64,000 nucleotides of DNA from an uncultured Spirochaetia bacterium. Its GTDB lineage: Bacteria; Oederibacteriota; PGYV01; Palsa-1178. Positions 4,284 to 59,788 of the stretch are shown here, one piece after another. Under the pieces are notes generated by a model, which had not been told where the DNA came from, ran no database searches, and was given only the letters and a program-made list of their open reading frames with translations. The DNA is taken from the NCBI GenBank assembly GCA_964443355.1, contig CAYUDX010000014.1, positions 17,992-81,991 on the forward strand, read 5' to 3'. The translations under genes and the position numbers were made by a program. Positions within the stretch are counted from its first letter, which is position 1. Every line of letters begins with the position of its first letter.

Positions 4284-7200
4284 TTATTGTATAACCACTT
4301 TTTCTATCGATGATTTTCCGACTTCCCCGCCCGTGCTTGTCGCGGTTATCACGAGGTAGTAAACCCCGCGCGCGAGGCCGGCGAAGTAGCTGGCCTGCAT
4401 CGTGGTGGCCACGGGACCTGCGGAATAGGTGTTGGTGTCCTCGAAGTAGCGCACCAGCCTGCCCGCCTTGGTGTATATCTTAACCTCTATCTTGTCTATG
4501 CTCTTGGAGACCCAGATGTATATGGTCCTGTTCGTCGGAACTCCGGGCGTCGGGTTCGGGTTCGGCCCGATGACGTATATCGGCGTCTGTCCCGGCATAG
4601 GCGTCGGCGTCCCAACCTTGAATATTGACATCGTGGGCGTCGGTTCGACGGTTATCGTCTGCGTTATTGTAAATGTCGGCGTTACCGGCACTGTCACTGT
4701 ATCGGTCGGCGTCGCGGTCATTGTCGGAGTCATGGCCCCTATGCTGAAGGGCATCGACGCCGGGCTTATCACGTCGTTCGCCGATACGTTGGTCCCCTGC
4801 GCGGCAGAGCTTATCGTGATCGAACCGCCTTTTGTGACGTTATAGATGTAAACCACGTCTGTTTCGGCGCCTATTGCAAGCGTTGCCGTTACCGCGGGCG
4901 AAGGCCCGGATACCAGCACGAGTGAATTCGACGGGTCTGTGACCGTGTAATTATTCGGCCCGACGTTCGTAAGCGGTGCCGTTCCGTTATTGGTTATCTT
5001 CAGCGTTATCGTCAACTGCTGGCCTTCGACTATTGTCGACGGGGCCGATATCGAGACCGAGAGCGACGGGCTCGTGGAATTCGTCGCAGTTGGCACGGGC
5101 GTGTAGGTATTTGTAGAGGTCAGCGTCGGGGTTATCGTGTATGTCAATGTCGGCGATGCTGTTATTGTCGCGGTATTTGCCTGCTGTGTCGGCGTATTTG
5201 TCGGAGTTCCGGCAGCCGGTGTGTTTGTCGCCACAATTGCGGTTGCCGTCGCCACGACTGGACAGCTCGGGCAGCCGTATATGTATATGTCGTCCACGGA
5301 CAGGTCAACCGCAGCCGGCGCTCCCGTAGCTCCGTTAAAGTTTGTCTGCCACTGTATCTCTTTGGCGTGCTGCAATACTGTCGCCAACGGCACTGCGTCC
5401 GTGGGTGACCACAGGAACTGCGCAAAAGTCGTAAAATCAAATTTATACTGGGTCCAGGCCGCCGTCGGAGTAAAAAGGACATGGTAATCATCGCTGCCCG
5501 TCAGGGTCTTGCCCGTGGTATCGCTTTCATACGGTATCTTTATCAGATACGACTGGTTGTTGCCTTTTGCGTAGAAACTGATTCCCGTGCAGGAACTTAA
5601 ATCGGTTGATGTAAAATTCGGCGAACCGGCCGTTGAATTCAATTGCGAGCCTATTCCAAGGCACGGATAATATCCGGTCGCCGCATCGGTGGCCCCGACC
5701 GTCCCCGTTATCCTCATGGAATATCCCGTTGTTATCGCCCCTCCGGCTGTCGGCGAGCAATAAGCGCCCTGGGCCGGCGCTATCCATGTATCGGTCGGAT
5801 AGGCGGGATCGCCCGATGCATAAGTATACCAGTATCCACCGTAATCATTGCTGTTGTTGCCGTCTTCAACATCGTCAAACAAGCATGTCAATCCCCCGTT
5901 GGGCGTATTAGTCGCCGTAGGTATGCCTGTCGTGGAAGTATATGTAACTGTTGCCGTGGGTATCGTCTGCGTATCCGTATACGTCGATGTCGCGCTCGGT
6001 ATGACTATGGTAAACGTCGAGGTCGGCGAATTCCCCGGAGTGGCCGTATAAGTCGATGTCGGCGAGTTGCCCGGCGTGTTTGTGTCTGTTATGGTCACGG
6101 TATACGTCCTTGTGGAAGTGTAAGAGGACGTCAGCGTAACCGTCGGCGTGTATGTCGGCGTGCGCGTATATGTCTGGGTGTCGGTCGGCGAATCCGTGGG
6201 TGAGCCGGCGTATTCCGTGTTCGTCGGCGTCACGGAGAATGTCGGCGAAACGGTATATGAAGGTGTCGCGGTCGCGGTGTAAGTCGACGTCGATGTGTCC
6301 GTCTTTGTCGCGGTATATGTCGGTGTAAAGGTCGGCGTGGAAGTATCCTTTGCCGTCCCAGTGAAAGTCGCCGTGGCCGTGGGTGTGGCAGTCGAAGTAT
6401 AGGTGTTCGAAGGCAGAGGCGTCCCCGTCGATGTGGCAGTCGGGGTTGCCGTCCTGGTTGAAGTCCCTGTATATGTGGGCGTGTAGGTGCTGCTCGGCAG
6501 AGCAGTGCCTGTGAATGTCGGTGACGGTGTCTTTGTGGGTGTTATTGTGGGGGTAAGCGACGGAGACGGCGTCGATGTCCATACAGTGCACGGGAACATG
6601 GAAACCTGGTCTATCTGTAGCAGAACAGTGCTCCAGGGCTGGCCAATGGTCTGCCAGTGTATGGCGTTAAGGTTGGTAAGAACCGATGCCATTGTCACTG
6701 CGGTGCCTGTCCCGGCCTGTTTAAAACTTGGCGTAGTGCCGGTAAAGAACAGCTGATATTGCGTCCATGTCGTCGGCGCGACAAAACTTGCCGAGTAATG
6801 GTCATTGCCGTCATTTATTGTAGCAGACGGCACAAGCTGGCAACTGTATATATTGCCGTCCCCTTTTGCCCAGAAAGTTATTCCGGTAAAGCCGGAACAA
6901 TTTACCGAACCTGTCGCAACTGACGAAGTGTTTGTCCCCATTCCTATAAAACCATATGTGTAAGCCGTGGTTACCACACCGGTCAACTGCGCGGCATAAG
7001 CCGTTAAATTGGCGCCCGGCGCAGTCACCGACATATATCCTACCGAAGTCCCGGAACTGGCGCTGTCGTTGTAGGAATACCAGCTTCCGCCCCATGAATT
7101 AATTGTCGTATCATTATCAAGATTACCCAGGGCAAGCTGACATGCAAATGTGGGTGTCAGGGTTGGTGTCTGGGTTATCGTTGATGTCAGGGTTGCCGAC

Positions 7201-9080
7201 GGCATAGGCGAAGGTGTCGGCGACCATAGGTATGGATAGAAAGCAACATTATCCAAACTCAAGTTAAATGTTATTTTCGTATTGTCGCCGTTCTGCCACT
7301 GCAATTTTTGCAAATGGGATGTAACCGTTGCTATAGGCACCACGACTGCCCAGCTTGGCTGGGTAAAGTCGGTGGCAAATGATAATTGATAATGTGTCCA
7401 GGTTGCCGGCGGGGTGAATGTGTACTGATAATATCCAGAATCTGATTGTAATGTTGAAGAATTCATTTCATTAAGGGCCACGGAATAAAGCGTTGCGCCG
7501 TCTCCCTTTGCGTCAAATACGATCCCTGTGAAAGGCATCACATTTACGCATCCTGAAACAGCAACGGCATTATATACAAGGTCCGTTCCAATTCCTACCG
7601 AGGGATAATTCGGCGCAACTGCCGCCGCCTTGGTACCAGTAACCTGCAGATACCATGTGGTGGCAGGCGCAGTATATGGAGGCGTGGTGGAAGTGGCGTT
7701 TGATCCGCCTGCTGTCATGGTGACAAAACCGCCCTGGATCGGATATACAGTGGCGCCAAGAGTCGCGGCGTTTGCCCATGTATACCAAAAACCGCCCCAG
7801 TTGTTTTGCGTGTTGTAATAAGGCATAAAATCCTCAAAATCATCCAGAAGCTGCGTTGACGGCGCCGGTGCCGGCGTATATGTCGGGACAGGTGCGCCTA
7901 TTTCCCTGAGGTCCTGAAAGTTTCCCGTCATGAGAAGAAGGGTTAAAAGTTCCAGCGTCCCATTATAATAAGAATCCGTTATCAAAAAACTCCTCGTCCT
8001 GTCATAATATGACTGCAGTTGCGTTGATGTTGTCGTGGAATACATTAAAGAGCATCCGGCAGGTCCGACAAAAGCCGCGTTGTTATATTGGCCCTGCGTC
8101 GAATTATTCGCTATGTAATACCCGTCCACTATGCTTGATGCGGATATTCCGCTGAAAAAAGAGGCGAACAGGCTTGTTTCCGTTGATGAAGGATTTGTAA
8201 CGGCCGCGCCCCACCACAGGTAATCCATTGCGTATCTGAAAGGAACACGGCAGGAATTATATGCATACTCCGTCCCGCTGCAACCGCCACTGCACGGATT
8301 GTCGGTCCTTCTCGACCCGTCGGAATTGCATATCTCGCCCACAAGGCCGCTGGTGGCATTCCTGTTTGTCGCAATGTTGTTGTAGCATTTTGCGATGGCG
8401 GCATTCCATGTGGCGGCATTACCCGCGTCGAACTTAGCGAATTCCCTTAAATACGCCGGGAAATAATATGAAGGATACGACCAGTCATCCCAGTTGTCGC
8501 CGGGTTTGATATGGTAATCGGTGGCGCTTATGTCATAAGAACGTATGCGTCCTATTTCCGTGGTGGCAAGCGTTGCGTAATTATACGTTCCTCCGCTTCC
8601 CCACTGTATGTCCGCCATAAGAAGCGCGAAAGCTATATCAAAATCCGCGTCTGAAGCCGAGTTGCTGTCCACGACCGTTCCGCCGGAACTGATGATCCAT
8701 GGCATGAGGTTTGACGCCTTACCCGCGGCGGTTGTGACGCTGACCTTGTAAGCCCATAAGTTATTAAATAACGTCTGGTCATCAAAATATATTGCGAGCA
8801 ACATTCCATATCCCTGGCCTTCCGATACGGTGCAATTATTCTGGCCATCTATGGTCTGAGGGCTTTGCACACGCTGTCCCACGGACGCCGTGGCCACATA
8901 AGTTGATTTCCATGTGGAATACATTGATTGCAAATCGGATATGCTGAAAGTGGTTATCCGGTTGCCGGCAACATAGTTCATGTTTATCGGGAACGGATAT
9001 TTGGTCGCCGCGAAAATCGCAGAACCTGACAGAATAGTTATCAAAGCGTTTAAACTGATCAGCAATAAAAATTTACGCAT
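4284..9080 (-). CDS. Modular glycoside hydrolase family 8: GH8 + three CBM11/CIA30-like domains + Thr/Pro linkers + Ig-like domain + T9SS/FlgD-like C-terminal sorting domain (1598 aa)
   Basis: Signal peptide; GH8 motifs TVSEGQGYGML and SASDADFDIAFALLMA; three modules starting LLDDFED..WGGFWY, LDNDTTINSWGGSWY and LFDDVEDG..YGGYWY; C-terminus PNPNP..KIYTKAGRLV..LARGVYY..EKVVIQ. Confidence 0.85.
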   Translation of the reverse strand: MRKFLLLISLNALITILSGSAIFAATKYPFPINMNYVAGNRITTFSISDLQSMYSTWKSTYVATASVGQRVQSPQTIDGQNNCTVSEGQGYGMLLAIYFDDQTLFNNLWAYKVSVTTAAGKASNLMPWIISSGGTVVDSNSASDADFDIAFALLMADIQWGSGGTYNYATLATTEIGRIRSYDISATDYHIKPGDNWDDWSYPSYYFPAYLREFAKFDAGNAATWNAAIAKCYNNIATNRNATSGLVGEICNSDGSRRTDNPCSGGCSGTEYAYNSCRVPFRYAMDYLWWGAAVTNPSSTETSLFASFFSGISASSIVDGYYIANNSTQGQYNNAAFVGPAGCSLMYSTTTSTQLQSYYDRTRSFLITDSYYNGTLELLTLLLMTGNFQDLREIGAPVPTYTPAPAPSTQLLDDFEDFMPYYNTQNNWGGFWYTWANAATLGATVYPIQGGFVTMTAGGSNATSTTPPYTAPATTWYLQVTGTKAAAVAPNYPSVGIGTDLVYNAVAVSGCVNVMPFTGIVFDAKGDGATLYSVALNEMNSSTLQSDSGYYQYTFTPPATWTHYQLSFATDFTQPSWAVVVPIATVTSHLQKLQWQNGDNTKITFNLSLDNVAFYPYLWSPTPSPMPSATLTSTITQTPTLTPTFACQLALGNLDNDTTINSWGGSWYSYNDSASSGTSVGYMSVTAPGANLTAYAAQLTGVVTTAYTYGFIGMGTNTSSVATGSVNCSGFTGITFWAKGDGNIYSCQLVPSATINDGNDHYSASFVAPTTWTQYQLFFTGTTPSFKQAGTGTAVTMASVLTNLNAIHWQTIGQPWSTVLLQIDQVSMFPCTVWTSTPSPSLTPTITPTKTPSPTFTGTALPSSTYTPTYTGTSTRTATPTATSTGTPLPSNTYTSTATPTATATFTGTAKDTSTPTFTPTYTATKTDTSTSTYTATATPSYTVSPTFSVTPTNTEYAGSPTDSPTDTQTYTRTPTYTPTVTLTSSYTSTRTYTVTITDTNTPGNSPTSTYTATPGNSPTSTFTIVIPSATSTYTDTQTIPTATVTYTSTTGIPTATNTPNGGLTCLFDDVEDGNNSNDYGGYWYTYASGDPAYPTDTWIAPAQGAYCSPTAGGAITTGYSMRITGTVGATDAATGYYPCLGIGSQLNSTAGSPNFTSTDLSSCTGISFYAKGNNQSYLIKIPYESDTTGKTLTGSDDYHVLFTPTAAWTQYKFDFTTFAQFLWSPTDAVPLATVLQHAKEIQWQTNFNGATGAPAAVDLSVDDIYIYGCPSCPVVATATAIVATNTPAAGTPTNTPTQQANTATITASPTLTYTITPTLTSTNTYTPVPTATNSTSPSLSVSISAPSTIVEGQQLTITLKITNNGTAPLTNVGPNNYTVTDPSNSLVLVSGPSPAVTATLAIGAETDVVYIYNVTKGGSITISSAAQGTNVSANDVISPASMPFSIGAMTPTMTATPTDTVTVPVTPTFTITQTITVEPTPTMSIFKVGTPTPMPGQTPIYVIGPNPNPTPGVPTNRTIYIWVSKSIDKIEVKIYTKAGRLVRYFEDTNTYSAGPVATTMQASYFAGLARGVYYLVITATSTGGEVGKSSIEKVVIQ
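5905..6580 (-). repeat. Thr/Pro-rich linker of the GH8 protein
   Basis: About 225 aa of TPT/TYT/TAT repeats between the second and third CBM-like domains. Confidence 0.85.
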
Positions 9081-16385: not shown

Positions 16386-17153
16386 TCACTGCAGGTATGA
16401 TATTCCAAAGACAAAATATGACTGCAGGAAATCCCCGATCTCCTCGCGCTGGAAGACATTTGAGATGTTGCGTATGTAAAATTCAACGTCCACATTATAG
16501 TTCAGGCTCATCTTTACGCCAACGTTGAACCTGTCCTCGTCATATTCCCCGACCAGCAGGACCGTGTCGGCCACGACCTTCGAAACATCCGCAACAAAAC
16601 CGGTGTAGTCGTGGCCAAGCGTTTTTTCGACGCCCATGCTGAAGCTCATGTCGGATATTTTTTTTGAGGCCACCGAGTAAAGCGCAAAATTCCCCCATGG
16701 CGACCTTTCGAACATGGATAGCGGGAATTTTTTCACCCCGACGGCCAGGCTCACAAAATATTCCTCTTCCTTTAGCGCCCGGCACTTAAAATCAAAATTT
16801 GTTGACTCGGAAATGGCGTCGCAAAAATTCACGAAAGAATTCCAGAAGCCCTGCACCGTCTCGGTGGTCTTATAGTGGTCCACCATGTCCGAGATCTGCC
16901 CGAAATTCACGACCGTCCCCGCTTCCATAAAATCAAGAAAACCGTAGTTGAACTTGAATATATAAGTGTCCATATGGAGCCCGAGCGTGAACTGTTTGTC
17001 GGCAAGAACGTACGCGGCGGGGTTGTCTATATATCCGCTGGTGCCCGAAGCCGTAGGCATAAGAAGAAAATGATTTACATCGACTGTTTCCGCGGATAAG
17101 ACGGAACAAAAAGCGGCCAAAACAAGGATGGTCAGTATTGCTTTTTTTCTCAC
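16386..17153 (-). CDS. YjbH-like outer-membrane beta-barrel protein (GTG start)
   Basis: AAGGAG RBS before GTG; signal peptide; MPTASGTSGYIDNPAAYVL N-terminal motif; amphipathic strands; C-terminal FGISYLQ. Confidence 0.55.
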   Translation of the reverse strand: MRKKAILTILVLAAFCSVLSAETVDVNHFLLMPTASGTSGYIDNPAAYVLADKQFTLGLHMDTYIFKFNYGFLDFMEAGTVVNFGQISDMVDHYKTTETVQGFWNSFVNFCDAISESTNFDFKCRALKEEEYFVSLAVGVKKFPLSMFERSPWGNFALYSVASKKISDMSFSMGVEKTLGHDYTGFVADVSKVVADTVLLVGEYDEDRFNVGVKMSLNYNVDVEFYIRNISNVFQREEIGDFLQSYFVFGISYLQ

Positions 17154-17264
17154 CGGCGGTTTCTCCTTTGAACTTTTGCGTTGCTTTTGTCCGGCTTCCG
17201 TCGATCTGCTCGTTTGTTGCTTAATCACAGACGTCCAAAAAATCTATAGCTTTTAAAATTTTTA

Positions 17265-17320
17265 TGGTCGGGACGACTGGGTTCGAACCAGCGGCCTCTC
17301 GCACCCCAAGCGAGTGCGCT
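17265..17320 (-). pseudogene. Truncated tRNA-Pro(GGG) copy: 3' 56 nt, D-stem 3' side to CCA
   Basis: Identical to 17445-17500; lacks the 5' acceptor strand and D-arm 5' half. Confidence 0.9.
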
Positions 17321-17444
17321 GACGGCGATGTCAATGCCCGGGCGTTTTACTTGCAATAATTGAATCGCCGGCGTCCGTGAAAACTCTAATTTCTTCCTTA
17401 ATTTCATTTTCACGGACTACCAAAAACATAACTTATACATTTTA

Positions 17445-17520
17445 TGGTCGGGACGACTGGGTTCGAACCAGCGGCCTCTCGCACCCCAAGCGAGTGCGCT
17501 ACCAACTGCGCTACGCCCCG
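17445..17520 (-). tRNA. tRNA-Pro(GGG)
   Basis: CGGGGCGTAGCGCAGTTGGTAGCGCACTCGCTTGGGGTGCGAGAGGCCGCTGGTTCGAACCCAGTCGTCCCGACCA; 76 nt cloverleaf, anticodon GGG, encoded CCA. Confidence 0.97.
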
Positions 17521-17671
17521 ACCTATCAATTTAACCTGTCGTCTTACTTCGCATCATGATGTCGGTAGTGTCCGTGGAAATCCTTATATTTTCCTTAATT
17601 TCATTTCCACGGGCTACGCCCCGACCTCATTAATGTATGTTTATTATTCTATGTCGGGGCGTGTCCGGAAA
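17496..17671. repeat. 176-bp direct repeat of 18122-18297 (tRNA 5' end plus upstream region)
   Basis: Offset 626 nt; only 2 mismatches (17635 and 17639). Confidence 0.9.
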
Positions 17672-17866
17672 AGACTTATAAATCTTCCTTAATTTCTTTT
17701 CCGGGCTACGCCCCGATAACGATTTTCCGTCCTTTGTCCTGTTCTAAGTCCTGTTCTAAAGAAAAAAAATGGTCGGGCTGACGGCGATGTCAAAATCCCG
17801 GCCGATTTACTTGCAATAATTAAAAAATCGCCGGCGTCCCGAAAATCTATAGCCCTTAAAATATTA

Positions 17867-17921
17867 TGGTCGGGGCGACTGGATTCGAACCAGCGGCCTC
17901 TTGGTCCCGAACCAAGCGCGC
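17867..17921 (-). pseudogene. Truncated tRNA-Pro(CGG) copy: 3' 55 nt
   Basis: Identical to 18071-18125; the 5' part is replaced by a hairpin unit. Confidence 0.9.
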
Positions 17922-18070
17922 CGCAAACAATGTCAATCCAACCAGTCGTTTTACTTCACATATCAAAATTGCTTGCGTCCGTGAAAATCCTGATATTTTC
18001 ATCTATCTATTTTTCACGGACTACCAACAACCTGGAGCGCGTACGTTTGTCTTTGCTTATCATAAAAAAA

Positions 18071-18146
18071 TGGTCGGGGCGACTGGATTCGAACCAGCGG
18101 CCTCTTGGTCCCGAACCAAGCGCGCTACCAACTGCGCTACGCCCCG
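18071..18146 (-). tRNA. tRNA-Pro(CGG)
   Basis: CGGGGCGTAGCGCAGTTGGTAGCGCGCTTGGTTCGGGACCAAGAGGCCGCTGGTTCGAATCCAGTCGCCCCGACCA; 76 nt, anticodon CGG. Confidence 0.97.
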
Positions 18147-18431
18147 ACCTATCAATTTAACCTGTCGTCTTACTTCGCATCATGATGTCGGTAGTGTCCG
18201 TGGAAATCCTTATATTTTCCTTAATTTCATTTCCACGGGCTACGCCCCGACCTCATTAATTTATATTTATTATTCTATGTCGGGGCGTGTCCGGAAAGAG
18301 TCTAATAGAATTTCCTCTATTTCTCTTTCCGGACTACGCCCACGGCCTTTATACTTTATTTTCTTAAAAACCCGCATTATTTTTAACGGAACAAAATTTT
18401 ACAGGAATACCCGCATATTTTCAAGTCTTTT

Positions 18432-18800
18432 TTACAACACAGCCTGGTTTTCAAGCAAATGCATTGCCTCGACTATCTCGTTCCTCACGTCTTTCAGCTT
18501 GTCCATGGTGAGCTTTTCCTCTATGCCGAAAAGTTCCATCTGTTCGCCGTCGATCTCCGCAAGGAGCTCCTTTAATTTTTTCTGGGCCCCGCTTATCTTA
18601 TATTCCTCGACATAAAGCAGTTTTTTTATGAGGAATATGACGTCGATATCCTTCTTGGTGTATTTGCGCTGGCCGACCCTGTTCTTTATGGGCTGTAACT
18701 CCTCGAAATTCTGCTCCCAGAACCTGATGACCGACTCCCTGACGCCCGTCAGCTGGGCCACTTCCCTTATCGGATAATACTTTTTCTCCCTGACATCCAT
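18432..18800 (-). CDS. MerR-family transcriptional regulator
   Basis: YYPIREVAQLTGVRESVIRFWEQNF..GQRKYTKKDI; position upstream of tRNA-Pro matches the common merR-tRNA-Pro synteny. Confidence 0.92.
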   Translation of the reverse strand: MDVREKKYYPIREVAQLTGVRESVIRFWEQNFEELQPIKNRVGQRKYTKKDIDVIFLIKKLLYVEEYKISGAQKKLKELLAEIDGEQMELFGIEEKLTMDKLKDVRNEIVEAMHLLENQAVL

Positions 18801-18812
18801 TTTTAGCCCCCT

Positions 18813-19817
18813 TTAATCCACAAATTCCTGCTCTGATTTCGCGGGCCTGTTCATAAGGTCCCTGACCGAATCACGCGGAGATTTGCCTTTATAGAGCGCC
18901 TCATACACTTCCCTGCATATGGGCATGTCCACCTTATATTTTTTCGCGAGGCTGTGGACAGAAAGGGTCGTTTTCACGCCTTCCGCCACCATTACCATGC
19001 CCCCGAGTATCTCTTCGATCTTCCTGCCGCGGCCGAGCTGTTCGCCGACGAACCTGTTGCGGCTGTGTTTTGATTCGCATGTCACCACAAGGTCCCCGAT
19101 GCCGGAGAGCCCGTAAAACGTGTCGCCGGATGCCCCCATGGCCACTCCGAGTCGCCTCATTTCGGCCATCCCCCTTGTGATAAGCGCGGCTTTTGTATTG
19201 TCCCCCATATCAAGCCCGTCAAGGATCCCGGCTGCTATGGCAATGACGTTCTTCACGCTTCCGCCGAGCTCGACCCCGATTATGTCCTGCCTGCTGTACG
19301 TCCTGAAATAATTTTTATTGAAGAACATGGACCGCACCGCCTCGGATAGGGCCGTGTCCTTTGAGGCCGCCACGACCGTCGTGGGCACTTTTCTCCCGAC
19401 TTCCTCGGCGTGGGACGGCCCGGAAAGAACAGCCACCTTCACCCTGCCAAGAACGTCCTTTATCACCTGCGACATCGTCATGAGGGTCTTCTGCTCGATG
19501 CCCTTTGTGACGCTTATGAATACCCTGGACCTGTAGTCCATTTTTTTTATCCTTAAAAGCAGGCTCCTCATAAAATGGGAAGGCTGCGCCAGCACTATGT
19601 ATGACGAGGCGTCCATGGCGGTTTTCAGGTCGGATGTTATAATTATTTCCTCGGGTATCTTCACGCCCTTCAGGAACTTTATATTTTCCCTTTTACTTTC
19701 CAGGACCCCGGCGTAATCCGCGAAAAATTCCCAGAGCGTCACCTCATGGCCCCGTTCGCTCAAAAGAATGGCAAGGGCCGTGCCCCAGCCTCCGGCCCCG
19801 AGTACCGTTACTTTCAT
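18813..19817 (-). CDS. gpsA: NAD(P)H-dependent glycerol-3-phosphate dehydrogenase
   Basis: VLGAGGWGTALA, LSGPSHAEEV, GGSVKNVIAIAAG, GIGDLVVTC, SRNR, AEGVKT. Confidence 0.97.
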   Translation of the reverse strand: MKVTVLGAGGWGTALAILLSERGHEVTLWEFFADYAGVLESKRENIKFLKGVKIPEEIIITSDLKTAMDASSYIVLAQPSHFMRSLLLRIKKMDYRSRVFISVTKGIEQKTLMTMSQVIKDVLGRVKVAVLSGPSHAEEVGRKVPTTVVAASKDTALSEAVRSMFFNKNYFRTYSRQDIIGVELGGSVKNVIAIAAGILDGLDMGDNTKAALITRGMAEMRRLGVAMGASGDTFYGLSGIGDLVVTCESKHSRNRFVGEQLGRGRKIEEILGGMVMVAEGVKTTLSVHSLAKKYKVDMPICREVYEALYKGKSPRDSVRDLMNRPAKSEQEFVD

Positions 19818-32194: not shown

Positions 32195-34297
32195 TTACTT
32201 TATTACCAGCTTTCCGTTTTCCGCGGTTATCCGGCCGAATACAACCTTTATGGGGGAATTTGACTTGTTGAGCAGCGGGTTGTAATCTTTGAGCGCGAAG
32301 TTAACGAGCCCGGCTGGCAGGCCAAGCCATCCGGCCTTAAGCCTTACGACCTTAAAGACAATGTCGGATCCGGCCGTTCCCGGGTTCGGGTTGCTCAATG
32401 TGAATGCCGCGTCCACGCCCATCTTTGAATAACTCCCCTTTATCTCTATAATTCCCCTGTCGATCGAGACCGAAGTTATGCTGAATTTTCCGGCGTAAAT
32501 TTTGAGCAGGTCGGCCAGATCGCCCTCACTGACGGTAAGCGAATCAATATGTATGGTCCCTATGGAAAGTATCTTCAACCCCTGCTGGCCTTCCGGATAC
32601 GGGGCGGTCCTTAACCCGTCTATGGATATTGCGGCGTCGCGCACAATAAGCCCGGCATTCTTATGCTTGAAATCCCCCACGACCCCTTTTTTGAAAGATA
32701 TCCTGAGCTCCTCGCCGGAGCCTTTCATATCCGCCTTGAAAGAAAATTTTTCCATGCCGCGCACGTAAAGAGGCAGCTCCGACATAATGCCGGAATTTGC
32801 CCCTTCGGTATCGTTTTTCCCGCCGGTTGCCGCGGGGTCTTTTCTTTTAAAAAGCATGCCCTTTGAGCCGTCCGGAAGCGGCGCCTCGTATACCATGGAA
32901 TAAAGCCTGCTTACCTCGCTTTTCGGGTCAAGTGCATCTTTTAATATTTCCCTTCGTTTTTCTCCGCCGGAAAACTCGGGCCCCAGGTCGCCGGTCTTGG
33001 CCAGAAAATAATCCGTGAACATGGGAAAATTGAAAATACCGGTCACCCTTACCCCGGGATAAAAATTCCTGGCCGTCTCGGCATAGGCGGAATTATTCAT
33101 GTACATAAAATCCGGGACAATGGCAAGGGTGGAGCCCGGGGATACCCTGGACATAAAATCCTCGACGTGCCATGAAGCTTTTGACGGCCTGGAACTTCCC
33201 GGCCACGGGAACGGCAGGTCGTTGACGGAGAATGTAAATGAAAGCAGGGCGAATACGGCGGCAAGCGCCGCCAGCGCAACGGCCGGCTTTTTGCCCCTCA
33301 AAAATCCAGCGGCGTAAACCGATATGACCGAAAAAACCGGCAAAAGCGGCATAAGGTACCTGTCTTTTTTATTGGGTATAAGTATCAGCAATATTAATCC
33401 CGCAAAGGCGGTCGCGGCCAGCTTTCTTCCCTCTTTTGAGAACAATGCGGATGCCGCGCCGGCCAGAAGCAGCGCCAGAAGCGGCCAGGAAATTATGCCG
33501 GGCATCAGGCCAAAATACATGGCGAATGAATCGGCGGAAAAAACAGCCGGCAGCCCTTCCACGGACCTCCTGTGCACCACATTTTTTATGAGATTCATGA
33601 TTATCGGCACGCTGTTGCAGGCATACCACGGCGCGGCGGTAATCAGGAAAACCACGGCGGCCGGCATGAGCCCCGCCCTTCTCCGGCTTTTTTTGTCAGG
33701 GCCGAAAAACTCGAGGGCCGCGGGCATCAGCATGTAGACAAAAAACGTCCATTTGACAAGCATTCCAAGGCCGCAGGCGAATCCGAAAAGCGCGGAAAAT
33801 TTTATGTCGGTGAATGAAGCTGTTTTTTCCAGCAGATAAAGCGAAGCTATGAAGAAAAAAGTCAGGGGCAAATCGAACATAAAAAAATGGCTTTCCCTTA
33901 TGACAAGCGGATACGCGGCAAATACGGCGCATGCGGCCATTGCCTGAAGGACCCCTGTCCTGCCGCGGGCGTACAGAAAAATGAAGATCACGCAGCCGCA
34001 CAGAAAAAGGGCCATGATGGCCGTGAAGTTGTCCTGTGAAGGGTTTGCCAATCCGAAAAAAGATGCCAGAAAAGGGACGAGCGGCGGATAGTATGATTCC
34101 TGCGACAAAAAAGAGCCAAATATTGAAAGCGGATTTTTCTGGATGGTTTCCTTAAACCCGCTGGACGCCCCGAGATGTATGGATTCGTCCCATCTCTGCG
34201 GGGTATTGTCCGTTGCAAGCCAGTTTAATTGGGAGAAACCGAGGTAAAGGCACAACAGGATGATGAAAGCGGCGCTTATTCTTCCGGTGCGCATCAT
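32195..34297 (-). CDS. ArnT/PMT-like (GT-C) polytopic glycosyltransferase with a C-terminal soluble extension
   Basis: WDESIH and YYPPL motifs, FDLPLTFF, GLGMLVKWT, KKDRYLMPLLP; many TM helices; C-terminal beta-rich DUF2993/LmeA-like region (tentative). Confidence 0.75.
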   Translation of the reverse strand: MMRTGRISAAFIILLCLYLGFSQLNWLATDNTPQRWDESIHLGASSGFKETIQKNPLSIFGSFLSQESYYPPLVPFLASFFGLANPSQDNFTAIMALFLCGCVIFIFLYARGRTGVLQAMAACAVFAAYPLVIRESHFFMFDLPLTFFFIASLYLLEKTASFTDIKFSALFGFACGLGMLVKWTFFVYMLMPAALEFFGPDKKSRRRAGLMPAAVVFLITAAPWYACNSVPIIMNLIKNVVHRRSVEGLPAVFSADSFAMYFGLMPGIISWPLLALLLAGAASALFSKEGRKLAATAFAGLILLILIPNKKDRYLMPLLPVFSVISVYAAGFLRGKKPAVALAALAAVFALLSFTFSVNDLPFPWPGSSRPSKASWHVEDFMSRVSPGSTLAIVPDFMYMNNSAYAETARNFYPGVRVTGIFNFPMFTDYFLAKTGDLGPEFSGGEKRREILKDALDPKSEVSRLYSMVYEAPLPDGSKGMLFKRKDPAATGGKNDTEGANSGIMSELPLYVRGMEKFSFKADMKGSGEELRISFKKGVVGDFKHKNAGLIVRDAAISIDGLRTAPYPEGQQGLKILSIGTIHIDSLTVSEGDLADLLKIYAGKFSITSVSIDRGIIEIKGSYSKMGVDAAFTLSNPNPGTAGSDIVFKVVRLKAGWLGLPAGLVNFALKDYNPLLNKSNSPIKVVFGRITAENGKLVIK

Positions 34298-34914
34298 AAC
34301 TTTACTGACGAAAGGTCCATATCCGGCCTGAATACTTCCCCGAGGCTGATGTTCCCGGCCATATCCTGCTTTTCCGCCCCGTCAATAAGGAACCTGACTC
34401 CCTTTACCCACTGAAAATTGTAAAATATCGTGTCCACGATGGAATATACGGCCAGGTTTTCGGAAGTGATGCCTGGCTTGCAGTTCTTTGAAAATTCCCG
34501 GGAAAGGTCCAGGTAAAGTATGCCGTCCTTGTCCTGGTAAACTTCCCTGAGCCTGGTCTGGTCCGGCAATACCTTTATATAAGCTCCGGCCGCCGGAATT
34601 TCCGCGAACATCTTCAGCAGCACCTGTTTGACCCGGTTTATCGGCTCGGCAGACTCGTATATGACATCCTGGGCGGCCTTGAGGCCGTCGGATTCCGCGT
34701 CGCCGAAAAATATGACGACTTTTATCTTTCTTTCGGTTTTTGTGAACAGCTTATACTCGGAAGGATTAACAACAGGGGTCTTCGGCCCGGATGAAAAAAT
34801 GCCGAACCGCGCGGCGGCGTAATACAGCCCGGCAACGGCCACGGCCGCCAGCAGAGCGTATAAATATTGTTTTCTTACTATGGGTTTATTTCCTGTATGT
34901 TCCTTTTTTTCCAT
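34294..34914 (-). CDS. GerMN-domain membrane-anchored protein
   Basis: N-terminal TM; LPDQTRLREVY..GILYLDLSREF..ENLAVYSIVDTI..VKGVRFLIDG. Confidence 0.85.
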   Translation of the reverse strand: MEKKEHTGNKPIVRKQYLYALLAAVAVAGLYYAAARFGIFSSGPKTPVVNPSEYKLFTKTERKIKVVIFFGDAESDGLKAAQDVIYESAEPINRVKQVLLKMFAEIPAAGAYIKVLPDQTRLREVYQDKDGILYLDLSREFSKNCKPGITSENLAVYSIVDTIFYNFQWVKGVRFLIDGAEKQDMAGNISLGEVFRPDMDLSSVKL

Positions 34915-42885: not shown

Positions 42886-43158
42886 TTATTTGAGCTGGGG
42901 TATTATTACGAATTTCATGGCGCTTTTCTGCTCGCCGTCCAGCTCCAGATGGGTGAATTCCGGCCTTATAAGTATTTCGACACCCTCGGGGCCTATGTAA
43001 TCCCTGGCTATGGTTATGGCTTTCATGGCCTGATTTACCGCAGCCGGCCCCATTACGACTATTTCAACGTCTTTTTTTTCCCTTATATTGTTCACGATCG
43101 ATCCCGCCACCGACTTGGGATTGCTGCCTGCCGCCACTTTCAGCCTTATGAGTTCCAT
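42886..43158 (-). CDS. spoVS: SpoVS-family (Alba-like) protein
   Basis: LKVAAGSNPKSVAGSI..GPAAVNQAMKAITIAR..P.F signature. Confidence 0.9.
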   Translation of the reverse strand: MELIRLKVAAGSNPKSVAGSIVNNIREKKDVEIVVMGPAAVNQAMKAITIARDYIGPEGVEILIRPEFTHLELDGEQKSAMKFVIIPQLK

Positions 43159-51402: not shown

Positions 51403-54400
51403 TTACTTGATTATGTATATCTTGCCCGTGTATTTTCCCGCTCCGGTGGTGACAATATACATGTAAATGCCCGCAGCGCATTTTTCTCCGTTCATGTTCG
51501 TGCCGTTCCATTCTATCCTGCCGGAGACACCGTCGAATTCCTTGACCTTATAACCCTGTATGTCGTATATTTCCACTGTGGAATTTGGCGGCATGAAGTC
51601 GAATTTCAGGGTGCCGTTGTAAGCCTTTGTGGGAGAATACGGGTTAGGGTAAACCGCTATCATATCCGGCGTCGGGGATGCGGTCGGCGTTATTGTGGAA
51701 GTCGTCGTTATCGTGGGCGTATTGGTGAAGGTCGGCGATGTCGTGTAAGTCGGCGATATTGTATGCGTCCTGGTGATGGTCGGCGTCTGGGTTATTGTGG
51801 CTGTTTCGGTTTCTGTGACCGTCTCGGTAACCGTGGGCGTGCCCGTCTTTGTGACGGATGGCGTGGCCGTGAATGTCGATGTGGCCGTATATGTGGGCGA
51901 TATGGTGTAGGTATTTGTGAAAGTGAACGTCGGCGTTATTGTGGGCGTCACCGTTGCCGTCCACGGCGGTGTTATCGTGGAAGTCGGAGTTACGGTCGGG
52001 GTATCCGTAAATGTCGGGCTGACCGAGAAGGTCGGGCTTATCGTGAAAGTCGGCGTCACGCTTGGCGTCGCCGTGAATGTCGGCGTCGCCGTGAATGTCG
52101 GCGTCGCAGTATAAGTGGGCGTGACCGTCTGCGTGACCGTCTTTGTGACCGTGAACGTATTGGTTGATGTTTCCGTAATTGTCGGGGTTACGGTCGGGGT
52201 CACGGTTTGCGTGTCTGTCGCCGTAATGGTCGGCGTGACCGTCTGCGTCACCGTCTCGGTGTCCGTCTGTGTAACTGTCTTGGTCACCGTCTGCGTGACC
52301 GTTATGGTTATAGTAGGCGTAACCGTTTGTGTCACCGTCTCGGTGTCCGTCTGCGTTACGGTCTTGGTTACCGTCTGCGTAACCGTTATGGTAATTGTCG
52401 GGGTAACAGTCTGCGTTACAGTCTGCGTCACGGTGGCGGTCACTGTCTTTGTTACCGTCGGAGTCACCGTCTGTGTCACTGTCGGCGTCACAGTCTGGGT
52501 AACCGTCTGCGTAACCGTCTGGGTAACCGTCTTTGTGACCGTGGGTGTTACCGTCTGCGTAACCGTCGGGGTTATCGTTTTTGTGACCGTGGGCGTGAAG
52601 GTAAATGTAAGCGGATCTCCCACGAGAGTATTATTGCTGACCCCGGTCTTTGTCGCATCGAGGGTGTCTTTAGCTGTTATATTCTGCAAACCGTCCGTTC
52701 CGTATTTGATCACTGTGAACTGGTGCACGCCGTTGTCTCCCGCCACAAAAGTATAATCGGACGGCAGTGTCGCAAGCGGGTCCGTAGATGTGAAATGGAC
52801 CGTCCCGGTGTAATTTGTCACCGTCTGGTTATAAGCGTCCTTTGCCCTCACTATTATTGTATAGAAGGTTATGTAAGTGCCCCATGACCTGAACGCCGTG
52901 GACGGTGCCGAAATGGCAAACGTTATTACAGGCTGTGACATTATTATGGCCGACGACGTCACTCCCGAGGGATTGGACATTGTCGCGGTGACTATATGGC
53001 CGATACCGGAGGATATCGAAAGCGTCAGTATTGTGCTCAACTGACCTGCCGCGTTGGAATATCCGCTGATAGGATTGACCGAGCCGTAATTTGAATCAAA
53101 AGATATTGGCACATTGGCTATGGCCTGCGCCGTGCCGTTCTGGTCCGTTATATATGCCATTACCGAATATGTTGATCCGGCAGGCGCGAAAATAGTGCCC
53201 GAAGATGCAGGCGGTGTTATGTGCAGGAAATATCCGGTAGTAACGTTAAGCGTCTCTGTAGCCGATGTGTACCCGGTTCCGGATATTACAAATGTATACG
53301 TGCCGGGTGTGTGTGATTTAATATAAATAAGGCAATAGCCGCTTGAATTTACAGTAAACGGCAATGCCGTATTCAGCCCGCTCCATGTCACCCCGTCAAG
53401 GGAGTACTGCACGTTTGCGTTTGCCGCAATTGTCAGCGAAGTATCACCTGATTTTGGCTGGGCATTGAAACCGCCCGCGTCCTGCAGATTAACGCCGAGG
53501 CTTCCTATAATATCCGCTCCCAGGGCCATCGGGTTAGGGTTCGGCACTATCTGCGTCGCTGTCCCTGATATATAAATAATTACCGTTGTGCCGAGAACCC
53601 CCGCCGAGTTGACCACGCAATAATTCATCTGGTCGGTAGAGGCTCCGGTCGTAAAAGTTGTCGTCACATGGCCGTTTGCGTCCGTATTGCCCGATGCCGG
53701 CGCCACAGTCGGAGCCCCGCCGCTTGCTTTCGGGACGAACGTTATCGCCGTGTTTGTTATAGGATTGCCGTAGGCATCGGTCAGGAGCGCGGTTATTGTA
53801 AGCGGCGTGCTTATAGGCGCCGAATATGCGCTTGCCGTGGCCGACAAAAGGGCCGCGACATTTGATATGGTGGTGGCGTATGCCTTGCCGTCCGTAAGGG
53901 CCGCCGCCGTATCATGCGCCGTAATTGTCACGCTGTTGCCGTTCTTGGTATCCATATAATAAAGCGTGGCCTTGCCGCTGGCAAGGGTTACGTTTACCGT
54001 AGTGAACCAGTTGTTCTGGTCGGTTGAGAACTGCATGGTTGCGGAAGCGGAAGAGAGCTTCACGACAGCGTTGGAATTGGCGCTGTTGCCCAGGCTGTCC
54101 TTGGCCTGCACTATTATGGTCGCGGTGTTTCCGGCCATATTTGTCTGCGTTGCCGGTATTATGGAAAGCGAGGAAGCGGGCGTATCGTTTACCGTGATGG
54201 CAGCCGTCCCCGTGGTAAGCCCGGTTACCGCGGCCGATACCGTCGAATTTCCATCCACTGAATCCCTTACAAGGATATTGTTGACCTGCGTTCCAGGCAG
54301 GTATACCGTTGTCAGCCATGTATTTCCATTATCCTGGCTGAACTGCATCGTTCCCGACGTGGATGTCATTGTTATATTCTGCGCATACGATATATTATTT

Positions 54401-59574: not shown

Positions 59575-59788
59575 AAGCGTCTCCTTGTAATTATTCCTCA
59601 CCTTTACAGTATTAATAGTATCACAAAATAAATCAAATTCAACCGATAAATGGGAGTATTTTCCAATATCACCTTATTATGTAGGTTTTAACGTATATAT
59701 GGGAATGCGCAAATTCCATTTTCACGCTATAATTTTAGGCTGTTTTTTATCATATGCCAATTGACATGGATGTCCGGGGACGTCTATA

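Follow-up and report, generated by a model that had tools for sequence, protein, structure and literature searches.

The stretch analysed here, called the window, is a 64-kb segment of a bacterial chromosome, and its minus strand carries at 17190-18424 a tRNA-Pro operon interspersed with an array of hairpin-bearing modules, which are the subject of this report. The genes, all of them encoded on the minus strand, are arranged as der-plsY-gpsA-merR-[array]-hypothetical-acylphosphatase-sigma70; the sigma-70, Der and PlsY genes mark the host as bacterial, and relatives of the locus carry the labels Candidatus Goldbacteria or 'Spirochaetia bacterium'. ARAGORN and Rfam agree on two intact tRNA genes, tRNA-Pro(CGG) at 18071-18146 and tRNA-Pro(GGG) at 17445-17520, both minus, and Rfam detects two further partial tRNAs below its threshold. 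Each intact tRNA-Pro contains GTAG at nucleotides (nt) 7-10 and 19-22 and nowhere else, just the two sites that a preliminary description of this DNA had pointed out. The same positions fall within a 7-nt direct repeat, GTAGCGC, at nt 7-13 and 19-25, and GTAG at nt 7-10 is common among tRNAs in the Rfam consensus.

Each module contains a first hairpin (H1; six copies, w1 to w6) and a second hairpin (H2), and occurs either at a tRNA 5′ end (type B) or in a tRNA D-loop (type A). Read along the tRNA strand, the operon consists of a promoter, a B module (w6), a B module (w5), tRNA(CGG), a degenerate copy of tRNA nt 6-21, a type A unit (w4 + H2d), tRNA(CGG) nt 22-76, a relic (H1 3′ half + H2c2 + GCCCGACCA), a B module (w3), a B module (w2), tRNA(GGG), TTGGTA, a type A unit (w1 + H2c1), tRNA(GGG) nt 22-76 and a further relic. 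In the following list R1 is a covariance model of H1 with its flanks, and L-numbers, here and below, denote contigs compared with the window.

18396-18424, minus: sigma-70-like promoter TTGAAA-17-TAAAAT (10/12 consensus matches), 3′ of merR and 5′ of the whole array
18289-18345, minus: module B1 of the CGG cluster, degenerate 5′-end copy CCGTGGGCGTA and H1 'w6' with stem GTCCGGAAAGAG/CTCTTTCCGGAC (model R1, 73 bits; stem identical in the L011 orthologue)
18241-18288, minus: H2 type a, with inverted tRNA 5′-end copy ACGCCCCGAC, AT-rich leader copy and second direct 5′-end copy GGTCGGGGCGTA (inverted repeats)
18196-18240, minus: H1 'w5', GCCCGTGGAAAT/ATTTCCACGGAC, identical to w2 (pattern and model R1)
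18147-18195, minus: H2 type b, ACTACCGAC, loop AAGTAAGACG..TTGATA, then leader; its 3′ arm is the true tRNA 5′ end (sequence and fold)
18071-18146, minus: intact tRNA-Pro(CGG) (ARAGORN; Rfam, 71.1 bits)
18022-18045, minus: degenerate copy of tRNA nt 6-21, CGTAcGCGCtccAGgttgTTGGTA, 5′ of the D-loop-type insertion (comparison with the tRNA by eye)
17977-18021, minus: H1 'w4', type A, after TTGGTA (pattern; model R1, 60.8 bits)
17922-17976, minus: H2 type d, stem GCAAGCAAT/ATTGTTTGC, loop GAAGTAAAACG..TTGACA (repeat family; three compensatory changes relative to type c)
17867-17921, minus: truncated tRNA-Pro(CGG), nt 22-76, identical to the intact gene (Rfam, 25.2 bits, partial)
17770-17866, minus: relic with trailer, H1 3′ half (..ATAGATTTTCGGGAC), H2 type c2 and the last 9 nt of a tRNA, GCCCGACCA (repeats; orthologous relic in L011)
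17663-17717, minus: module B of the GGG cluster, 5′-end copy ATCGGGGCGTA and H1 'w3', GCCCGGAAAAGA/TCTTTTCCGGAC (model R1, 70.3 bits)
17618-17662, minus: H2 type a, inverted 5′-end copy ACGCCCCGAC, leader copy and direct 5′-end copy (inverted repeats)
17570-17617, minus: GTA and H1 'w2' (model R1, 72.3 bits)
17521-17569, minus: H2 type b, identical to the CGG-cluster copy and within the 228-nt repeat (95% repeat)
17445-17520, minus: intact tRNA-Pro(GGG) (ARAGORN; Rfam)
17373-17423, minus: TTGGTA and H1 'w1', type A (model R1, 61.8 bits)
17321-17372, minus: H2 type c1, stem GCCGGCGAT/ATCGCCGTC, loop CAAGTAAAACG..TTGACA (repeats)
17265-17320, minus: truncated tRNA-Pro(GGG), nt 22-76, identical to the intact gene (Rfam, 20.6 bits)
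17190-17264, minus: trailer, H1 3′-half relic GCTATAGATTTTTTGGAC and degenerate type-c H2 (80% identity to 17826-17865; by eye)

The pattern GTAGYCCG-N30-42-CGGRC has exactly six matches in the 64 kb, every one on the minus (tRNA) strand, at 17373-17420, 17570-17617, 17663-17709, 17977-18024, 18196-18243 and 18289-18337. Only 0.07 matches are expected by chance, and six were reached in 0/100 shuffles. These are the six hairpins that the preliminary description had located on the tRNA strand, each with a GTAG foot, a stem and an AT-rich interior; in the window they measure 47-49 nt with GTAG counted. Reading of the sequence also upholds the tRNA-Pro-like contexts described for them, four at the tRNA 5′ end (GGTCGGGGCGTA before G in two copies, TATCGGGGCGTA before G in one and CCGTGGGCGTA before G in one) and two in the D-loop (TTGGTA before G). 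Every H1 in the window has an H2 after it. A shared H2 loop had been reported for four units; the motif, AAGTAARWCG..TTGAYA, occurs in five H2 copies with four distinct sequences (b, twice; c1; c2; d). Absent from the earlier account was the state of the tRNA genes: just two are intact, and both D-loop copies of H1 lie in truncated pseudo-tRNAs, in which nt 22-76 are identical to the neighbouring gene and the 5′ part is missing or degenerate. Further relics are found at 17770-17866 and about 17190-17264, and a block of 228 nt (part of H2a, w2/w5, H2b and the tRNA 5′ half) is present twice at 95% identity. The locus is not a simple tandem repeat or CRISPR array because its units are too divergent, and Tandem Repeats Finder reports no array.

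Relatives of the locus were reached via MerR homologues (65-88% identity) and comprise twelve syntenic merR-tRNA-Pro locus types. Nine of the twelve, the window species among them, have H1 modules upstream of tRNA-Pro(CGG), tRNA-Pro(GGG) or both. L010 has one module; L011/12 has one module and a relic, with the whole block of ~300 nt tandemly repeated; L013-15 has one or more; L016/17 has two modules before the CGG gene and one before the GGG gene; L019/20, whose MerR is named Candidatus Goldbacteria, has three tandem modules; L024 has two; L028/29 has one before the CGG gene, decayed to 25 nt, and one before the GGG gene; and L030 has one before the GGG gene. Modules are absent from L018 (MerR identity 80%), L023 (83%) and L021/22 (65%). 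H2 types b, c and d are confined to the window species and L011 among the loci compared.

Several other features were seen in the relatives. The repeated block of L011 [B module + tRNA-Pro(CGG) + relic] contains an N run at L011:5057-5156, a scaffold gap, and its copy number is not fixed by the assembly; no tRNA-Pro(GGG) is seen at this locus, which contains that gap. L021 has a tandem duplication of ~120 nt comprising the tRNA-Pro(GGG) 3′ end and trailer (AATCCCTGTCGCCCCGACCATTTAAATTTATGT.ACGGCAGTGAAAGGGATTGAAGG.AATTTGCCGCACGC.GTGCGTGAA; L021:3700-3930 compared with L022:2630-2720), with ~65 nt of unrelated GC-rich sequence between the copies, and the sister contig L022 is without the duplication; it looks like an attachment (att)-like scar or small insertion unrelated to H1. 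A second repeat family, not present in the window, lies near the relatives' tRNA-Pro genes: purine-rich GGAGAGAGTAGATAGGAGA and its complement CACCTTTCTCCTCTCTACTCTC form long-range inverted repeats that adjoin terminator-like hairpins (L016:4795-4905 and 5180-5270; L024:3420-3530; L030:2600-2640 and 2795-2870; L010:4630-4665).

The modules have a common anatomy, with a family size of ~92-103 nt. In type B the order is [native leader + tRNA nt 1-9] - H1 - [inverted tRNA 5′-end copy] - [leader + nt 1-9 again]; in the type A (D-loop) variant, a truncated tRNA copy holds H1 and a second hairpin between its nt 21 and 22. H1 has a lower stem of 10-13 bp, an internal loop and a short upper stem, for a total of 45-50 nt with an interior of 20-27 nt that contains a purine-rich A(A/G)GGAA motif. 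On its left, the 5′ end of the cognate tRNA (nt -3 to 9) is repeated in direct orientation. On its right that 5′ end recurs in inverted form as ACGCCCCGAC; type b has ACTACCGAC instead, a sequence complementary to GTAG as well. After the inverted copy come AT-rich sequence similar to the leader that is native to empty loci, and then the tRNA 5′ end again. In L028, for example, about 31-37 nt of leader and 5′ end are repeated on either side of H1 and the inverted copy; the leader is duplicated along with the 5′ end in L016 and L024 as well, and is similar to the native one in L023, an empty locus.

The flanks track the cognate tRNA. At CGG genes the 5′-end copy is GGGGCGTA and the inverted copy ACGCCCCGAC; at the GGG genes of L016 and L013 they are GGGGTGTA and ACACC..; at the GGG gene of L030, GGGCTGTG and CAGCCGAC; and at that of L028, GGGCTG (also given as GGGCTG(TG) for L030/L028) and ACGCCCGAC. 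The tRNA-Pro(GGG) 5′ end in L028 and L030 is CGGGCTGTGG, from which GTAG is absent, and the junctions of their homologous modules are likewise without it (GGGCTG joined to CACGG.., and GGGCTGTG joined to CCCG..). The H1 junction is itself variable, falling after tRNA nt 9, 21, 8/9 or 7. A GTAG head is present in 6/6 window copies and all 17 aligned H1 sequences, where it coincides with tRNA nt 7-10 or 19-22. Because the flanks follow the cognate tRNA, including GGG genes that have no GTAG, we conclude that GTAG is tRNA sequence and probably not a signature of the element. A more general caution is that a GTAG foot beside a hairpin may be ordinary tRNA sequence, and alone is no evidence of activity by a REP-associated tyrosine transposase (RAYT; REP, repetitive extragenic palindromic).

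Two tRNA-based identities for the modules were considered. The B module is not a functional CCA-ending tRNA-like minihelix: its right flank is an inverted 5′ end (ACG.., CTAC..), not a tRNA 3′ end, and it has no CCA. Group I introns in tRNAs occupy the anticodon loop and have a catalytic core of >200 nt, and archaeal introns and split tRNAs have bulge-helix-bulge motifs where exon meets intron, together with a full set of exons. The inserts described here lie at positions 9/10 and 21/22, measure ~97-103 nt and give no group I match in Rfam, which speaks against a group I intron or an archaeal split tRNA; in addition, the 5′ exon is missing or degenerate in both type A copies, and the host is bacterial.

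The stems of H1 covary. In a model-based alignment of 17 distinct H1 sequences from 7 species, evaluated with 500 shuffles and slid controls, 96.8% of cells form standard pairs and 10/13 pairs are changed on both sides (41 cells). None of the shuffles (0/500) matched this pairing, and the slid controls gave 37-50%; the covarying stems of the preliminary description are thereby corroborated. Stems are wholly different between lineages with pairing kept (CCGGAAAGAG, CCGTGGAAAT, CCAGTAAAGG, CCGGAACGA, ACCTGACGAT, TCATGAAGAT, CCCTATAAAC, CCGTAACTGAT). The interior carries the motif ATTAAGGAA, ATAGAGGAA or GATGAGGAA, followed by ..TATTA.TAG, and usually forms a small upper stem; GGA is missing in 3/17 sequences. 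Between the window and the orthologous module of L011, identity is 100% in the H1 stems, the 5′-end copy and the inverted copy, 76% in the H1 interior, 75% in the leader copy and 53% in the leader outside the module. This gradient indicates that the hairpin and its immediate flanks are under constraint.

It is probable that the modules are transcribed as part of the pre-tRNA. The TTGAAA-17-TAAAAT element is found at the same place in L019, and by eye it is also present in L011, L016, L018, L023 and L024, including loci without hairpins. A conserved promoter upstream of the whole array implies that the modules probably reside in the pre-tRNA leader and spacers, and a consensus scan of the window found no internal promoters within modules above shuffle expectation. 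A small MerR-family regulator (window 18432-18800, minus) lies directly upstream of the operon promoter in all relatives, with modules or without; the promoter spacer is 17 bp, versus 19-20 bp typical for MerR-controlled promoters.

Folding of the leader together with tRNA(CGG) gives z = -7.5 relative to shuffles, with the H1 hairpins predicted to form and the tRNA 5′-end copies predicted to pair with their complements. The first module folds in silico as a single long hairpin composed of the 5′-end copy, a bulged A, H1 and the inverted copy. In the minimum-energy fold the 5′-end copy of the second module pairs with the 3′ acceptor strand of the tRNA; the predicted structure therefore reads as a tRNA with an insert of ~100 nt between A9 and G10, the 3′ end of which re-supplies the leader and nt 1-9.

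The two clusters of the operon have recombined. The first 25 nt of the window's tRNA-Pro(GGG) match those of tRNA-Pro(CGG) exactly, which is not the case in the GGG genes of relatives. The 228-nt repeat at 95% identity, which carried a CGG-type 5′ half into the GGG tRNA, points to this recombination. In L006 (803-879) and other relatives the GGG tRNA reads CGGGGTG..GGCTAG..CACCCCG; in the window gene (17445-17520) the acceptor 3′ strand is CGTCCCG, giving a G5-U68 wobble. These differences suggest gene conversion with the CGG cluster as donor, after which part of the change was compensated.

Searches beyond the operon recovered no further members. Model R1, run on both strands of 128.8 kb (the window and 11 loci), matched all modules on the tRNA strand and otherwise gave only reverse-strand echoes and one match at E = 3.8, so that the known tRNA-Pro modules are the only ones detected in this space. 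A pattern combining the H1 foot and the H2 loop gave two chance matches in coding sequence across GTDB genomes, and was too strict to match even L011; a context-free H2 c/d pattern retrieved from Joint Genome Institute (JGI) metagenomes only L026 (same species, same locus) and two chance matches. In 2.9 million viral contigs a B-module pattern needing a GTAG-type flank had 0 matches, and blastn matches in phage genomes were limited to the tRNA-Pro part. Among 51 open reading frames (ORFs) of the window that were scanned, Pfam identified no transposase, integrase, recombinase, reverse transcriptase or Y1_Tnp/HUH protein, in keeping with the earlier remark that the window holds no transposase. 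In Rfam 15 only tRNA is matched at E<=1 in 16500-19000, and only tRNA at the gathering threshold in the window and four relatives; a known ribozyme, riboswitch, small RNA (sRNA) or transfer-messenger RNA (tmRNA) is thus not indicated, and ARAGORN assigns neither tRNA nor tmRNA to the modules. Small ORFs with a start inside H1's interior were dismissed, their start codons and frames not being conserved by eye. No description of such modules was found in full-text literature searches.

Elsewhere in the window, two giant ORFs, one at 51403-59601 (minus; 2732 aa, Big_1 repeats and a CHU_C type IX secretion signal) and one at 4284-9080 (minus; 1598 aa, GH8 and CIA30/CBM11 domains), suggest a polysaccharide-degrading organism with a type IX secretion system. 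SpoVS and Germane (GerM-like) domain proteins are encoded at 42886-43158 (minus) and 34294-34914 (minus), in a genome that apparently belongs to a non-Firmicute candidate phylum.

The reading that we favour, with confidence falling somewhat short of even, is that they are a lineage-specific family of structured leader/spacer modules in the tRNA-Pro(CGG)-tRNA-Pro(GGG) operon, spread by tRNA-anchored duplication or recombination, with the hairpin kept by selection. The module arose once, because H1 is homologous in all species. With tRNA-Pro sequence as the anchor, segmental duplication, gene conversion or misaligned recombination would generate the modules and distribute them to the tRNA-Pro genes of the operon; the GTAGCGC repeat could be such an anchor, and a GTAG-specific transposase would be unnecessary. 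The modules would be transcribed from the conserved promoter within the pre-tRNA. In the transcript, the upstream 5′-end copy would pair with the inverted copy, lengthening H1 into a long hairpin, so that the inverted copy could not invade the genuine acceptor stem. The module would then be removed by RNase P, acting at the true 5′ end, and by endonucleases, and selection would maintain the pairability of H1 and its immediate flanks.

A number of points weigh against this reading. It leaves the origin of H1 itself unexplained. The two D-loop copies appear as clean insertions of ~97-101 nt between tRNA nt 21 and 22, without target duplication; misaligned recombination at the GTAGCGC repeat could convert an nt-9 junction into an nt-21 junction. 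The GGG-gene module of L016 has a CGG-type leader between 5′-end copies that both keep the GGG-type T6; a crossover by recombination would have just 3-7 nt of homology there, so that precise insertion fits better. Selfish mobile DNA, too, typically has a scattered distribution, several copies and some copies in decay. The search space for H1 was 128.8 kb, without tRNA-Pro(UGG) and the other tRNAs of the genome, and the collection-wide patterns covered only the H2 variant of two species or required a GTAG-type flank. Finally, there is the point of which strand matters: the modelled pairs include nine G-T and zero A-C cells, whereas a C/A opposition that recurs at position two of the stem speaks for the other strand.

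It is possible, if somewhat unlikely, that the modules represent something new in kind. H1/H2 may be a tRNA-gene-specific mobile double-hairpin element that enters the 5′ acceptor/D-arm region of tRNA-Pro by a single-stranded DNA or RNA route, and that survives by rebuilding with each insertion the interrupted tRNA end (promoter-proximal leader + nt 1-9, or nt 22-76), and/or the released hairpins may be a new class of regulatory RNA borne by tRNA operons. If the modules are mobile, they would provide an example of self-repairing insertion into an essential gene; if they are functional RNA, a structured-RNA family would be added in the pre-tRNA leader.

A related scenario, which we consider unlikely, makes the hairpins themselves the functional product: stable hairpin RNAs would be released during pre-tRNA processing and would have a trans-acting role, such as titration of an RNA-binding protein or sRNA through A(A/G)GGAA, analogously to tRNA-operon spacer sponges and CsrB/RsmZ-type multi-hairpin RNAs. 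Spacer fragments of E. coli tRNA operons do persist and act (3′ETS-leuZ). The interior motif is kept across species whose stems changed completely, stems and flanks are more constrained than the neighbouring leader, and the copies stand in tandem behind a strong conserved promoter, all of which speak for such RNAs. However, the modules are lost or decayed in close relatives (L018, L023 and the CGG module of L028) and so are dispensable, 3/17 interiors lack GGA, and flanks that copy the tRNA 5′ end are left unexplained.

Rather doubtful is the idea that the modules are relics or miniatures of another trans-mobilised, tRNA-Pro-specific element, for example one moved by a site-specific recombinase/integrase or by some unknown insertion mechanism with a 10-12-nt target duplication, in which the incoming DNA would re-supply the displaced part of the tRNA (the 3′ 55 nt in type A, the leader and nt 1-9 in type B). 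The type A arrangement of full tRNA, short body and displaced nt 22-76, which occurs twice with an older relic downstream, has the pattern of successive tRNA-gene integrations. The B arrays likewise read as target-insert-target-insert-target (L019), the L016 GGG module has its GGG-type T6 on both sides of an insert with CGG-type leader, and the locus is recombinogenic in relatives, as in the tRNA 3′-end duplication of L021 that is missing from L022. Yet there is no integrase, cargo or recombinase in the 64 kb, the 'elements' are only ~100-180 nt, and the duplicated flanks range from about 10 to about 40 nt. Integrase chemistry also does not account for an inverted target copy, and the B module had no match in the 2.9 million viral contigs, while phage genomes match tRNA-Pro alone.

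The interpretation offered in the preliminary description was a REP-like element moved by a GTAG-targeting RAYT. Its observations hold in that the hairpins are real, covarying and tRNA-Pro-specific, but the mechanism fares less well, and we regard it as distinctly doubtful. It would involve a non-autonomous single-stranded DNA element, similar to REPs and bacterial interspersed mosaic elements (BIMEs) or derived from IS200/IS605 as a palindrome-associated element, with an HUH Y1 enzyme (RAYT/TnpA) encoded elsewhere that recognises the hairpin and its 5′ GTAG and inserts 3′ of GTA(G) in tRNA-Pro. Consistent with this, GTAG lies directly 5′ of a covarying hairpin in 6/6 window copies and 17/17 aligned sequences, the two tRNA positions used both fall between GTA and G, and in type A copies both ends bear a hairpin and the target is not duplicated. 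The L016 GGG-gene module with its CGG-type leader fits as well, and the hairpin orientation is that of the probable leading-strand sequence by GC skew, as such elements expect, although this is confounded by tRNA orientation. Against the proposed role of GTAG as target stand the homologous modules of L028 and L030, which occupy tRNA-Pro(GGG) genes that lack GTAG and have their junction after G7 or G9, and the identity of GTAG with tRNA nt 7-10 and 19-22. Furthermore, GTAG is common at nt 7-10 of tRNAs and occurs by chance ~1 per 256 nt, yet only tRNA-Pro is occupied. The flanks are direct and inverted copies of the tRNA 5′ end and a leader copy, so that long direct repeats (leader + 5′ end) bound the B modules; the covariance model finds no H1 elsewhere in the 128.8 kb; no Y1/HUH gene is in the window; and there is a single orientation with no inverted pairs, in hairpins of 45-50 nt with 20-27-nt interiors, unlike REPs (PMC3733652).

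It is highly improbable that the array was created in assembly, as a chimera produced by repeats from a single tRNA-Pro locus: the 228-nt repeat, four contigs that end inside the array (L002, L004, L005 and L007) and the possibly collapsed version in L003 might hint at one, but contig L026, from a JGI sample other than the JGI peat/bog metagenome that yielded the window, has 100% identity across 1338 nt, which extend from w5 past both clusters and reach the downstream gene (5/6 hairpins and both tRNAs), and homologous modules, different in sequence, occur in eight other locus types from independent projects. The upstream part of the array is confirmed by four other contigs. L003 is a one-cluster version that may reflect assembly collapse or a real deletion, and L006 shares the B modules and tRNA(CGG), immediately after which it has a different tRNA-Pro(GGG), and is without a type A unit. 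From L026 and these variants, the structure is reproducible and the population apparently structurally polymorphic.

The modules bear partial likenesses to several known systems. REPs of the GTAG super-family, including BIMEs, share a GTAG 5′ of an imperfect palindrome, compensating stem changes, small size and an extragenic, non-coding nature (PMC3733652). REPs are 20-40 nt long with stems of 6-13 bp and loops mostly of 2-5 nt, and are scattered in tens to hundreds of copies, frequently paired as inverted dimers, in association with RAYTs (PMC3733652). In contrast, H1 is 45-50 nt with a structured interior that forms a second small stem, occurs in one orientation and in the tRNA-Pro operon only, lacks GTAG in some homologues and, by model R1, is neither dispersed nor arranged in inverted dimers within the 128.8 kb. 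Palindrome-associated elements derived from IS200/IS605, which move as single strands ('peel and paste') to a place 3′ of one tetra- or pentanucleotide, resemble type A in having a hairpin near each end, a position 3′ of GTA(G) and no target duplication, and the fixed site and constant ends of such elements are seen in type A (GTA on the left, GCGC on the right). The two hairpins of the modules are, however, unrelated in sequence, and the right end varies from module to module (..GTCA, ..TGCG, ..CGTA); long direct repeats of 10 to ~40 nt flank the B copies, junctions are variable, and there are no dispersed copies in the 128.8 kb and no TnpA in the window.

Scars that integrative elements leave in tRNA genes (attL/attR duplications, cis-mobilisable remnants) and pseudo-tRNA fragments produced when tRNA genes recombine illegitimately also include partial tRNA copies (3′ 55 nt, 3′ 9 nt) beside an intact gene, with relics further out. 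This att-type arrangement is found in the type A units and relics only, where nt 22-76 are repeated after each intact tRNA and a 9-10-nt 3′-end relic is added. The modules differ in that they mostly duplicate the 5′ end and leader and contain an inverted 5′-end copy and a conserved hairpin, and in having bodies of ~100-180 nt with no recombinase or cargo in the 64 kb, as opposed to integrase islands. Fungal and algal mitochondrial double-hairpin elements and GC clusters are small and non-coding, are inserted in intergenic regions and structural-RNA genes, and have no transposase of their own; they belong to another kingdom, have other sequences and are genome-dispersed, whereas the modules are confined to one operon and carry target copies.

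A further parallel is with functional spacer RNAs of stable-RNA operons, such as the 3′ETS-leuZ sponge, RNase III processing stems and 23S rRNA intervening sequences, which are structured non-tRNA sequences co-transcribed in the operon and cut out during maturation. As judged from sequence, the modules have the corresponding properties of an upstream promoter, sense-strand placement and covarying structure. To our knowledge, none of these spacers is built from direct and inverted tRNA 5′-end copies, and none is in tandem with covarying stems; nor do we know of a described family that combines confinement to one operon, a direct/inverted tRNA 5′-end build, a hairpin kept through stem turnover and an intact tRNA left in place. 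The general kind is thus already known, from small palindromic repeats and from structured spacers of stable-RNA operons. What is unusual is the architecture, in which a covarying hairpin is bracketed by direct and inverted copies of the 5′ end of its target tRNA, in one operon, with an intact tRNA always kept.

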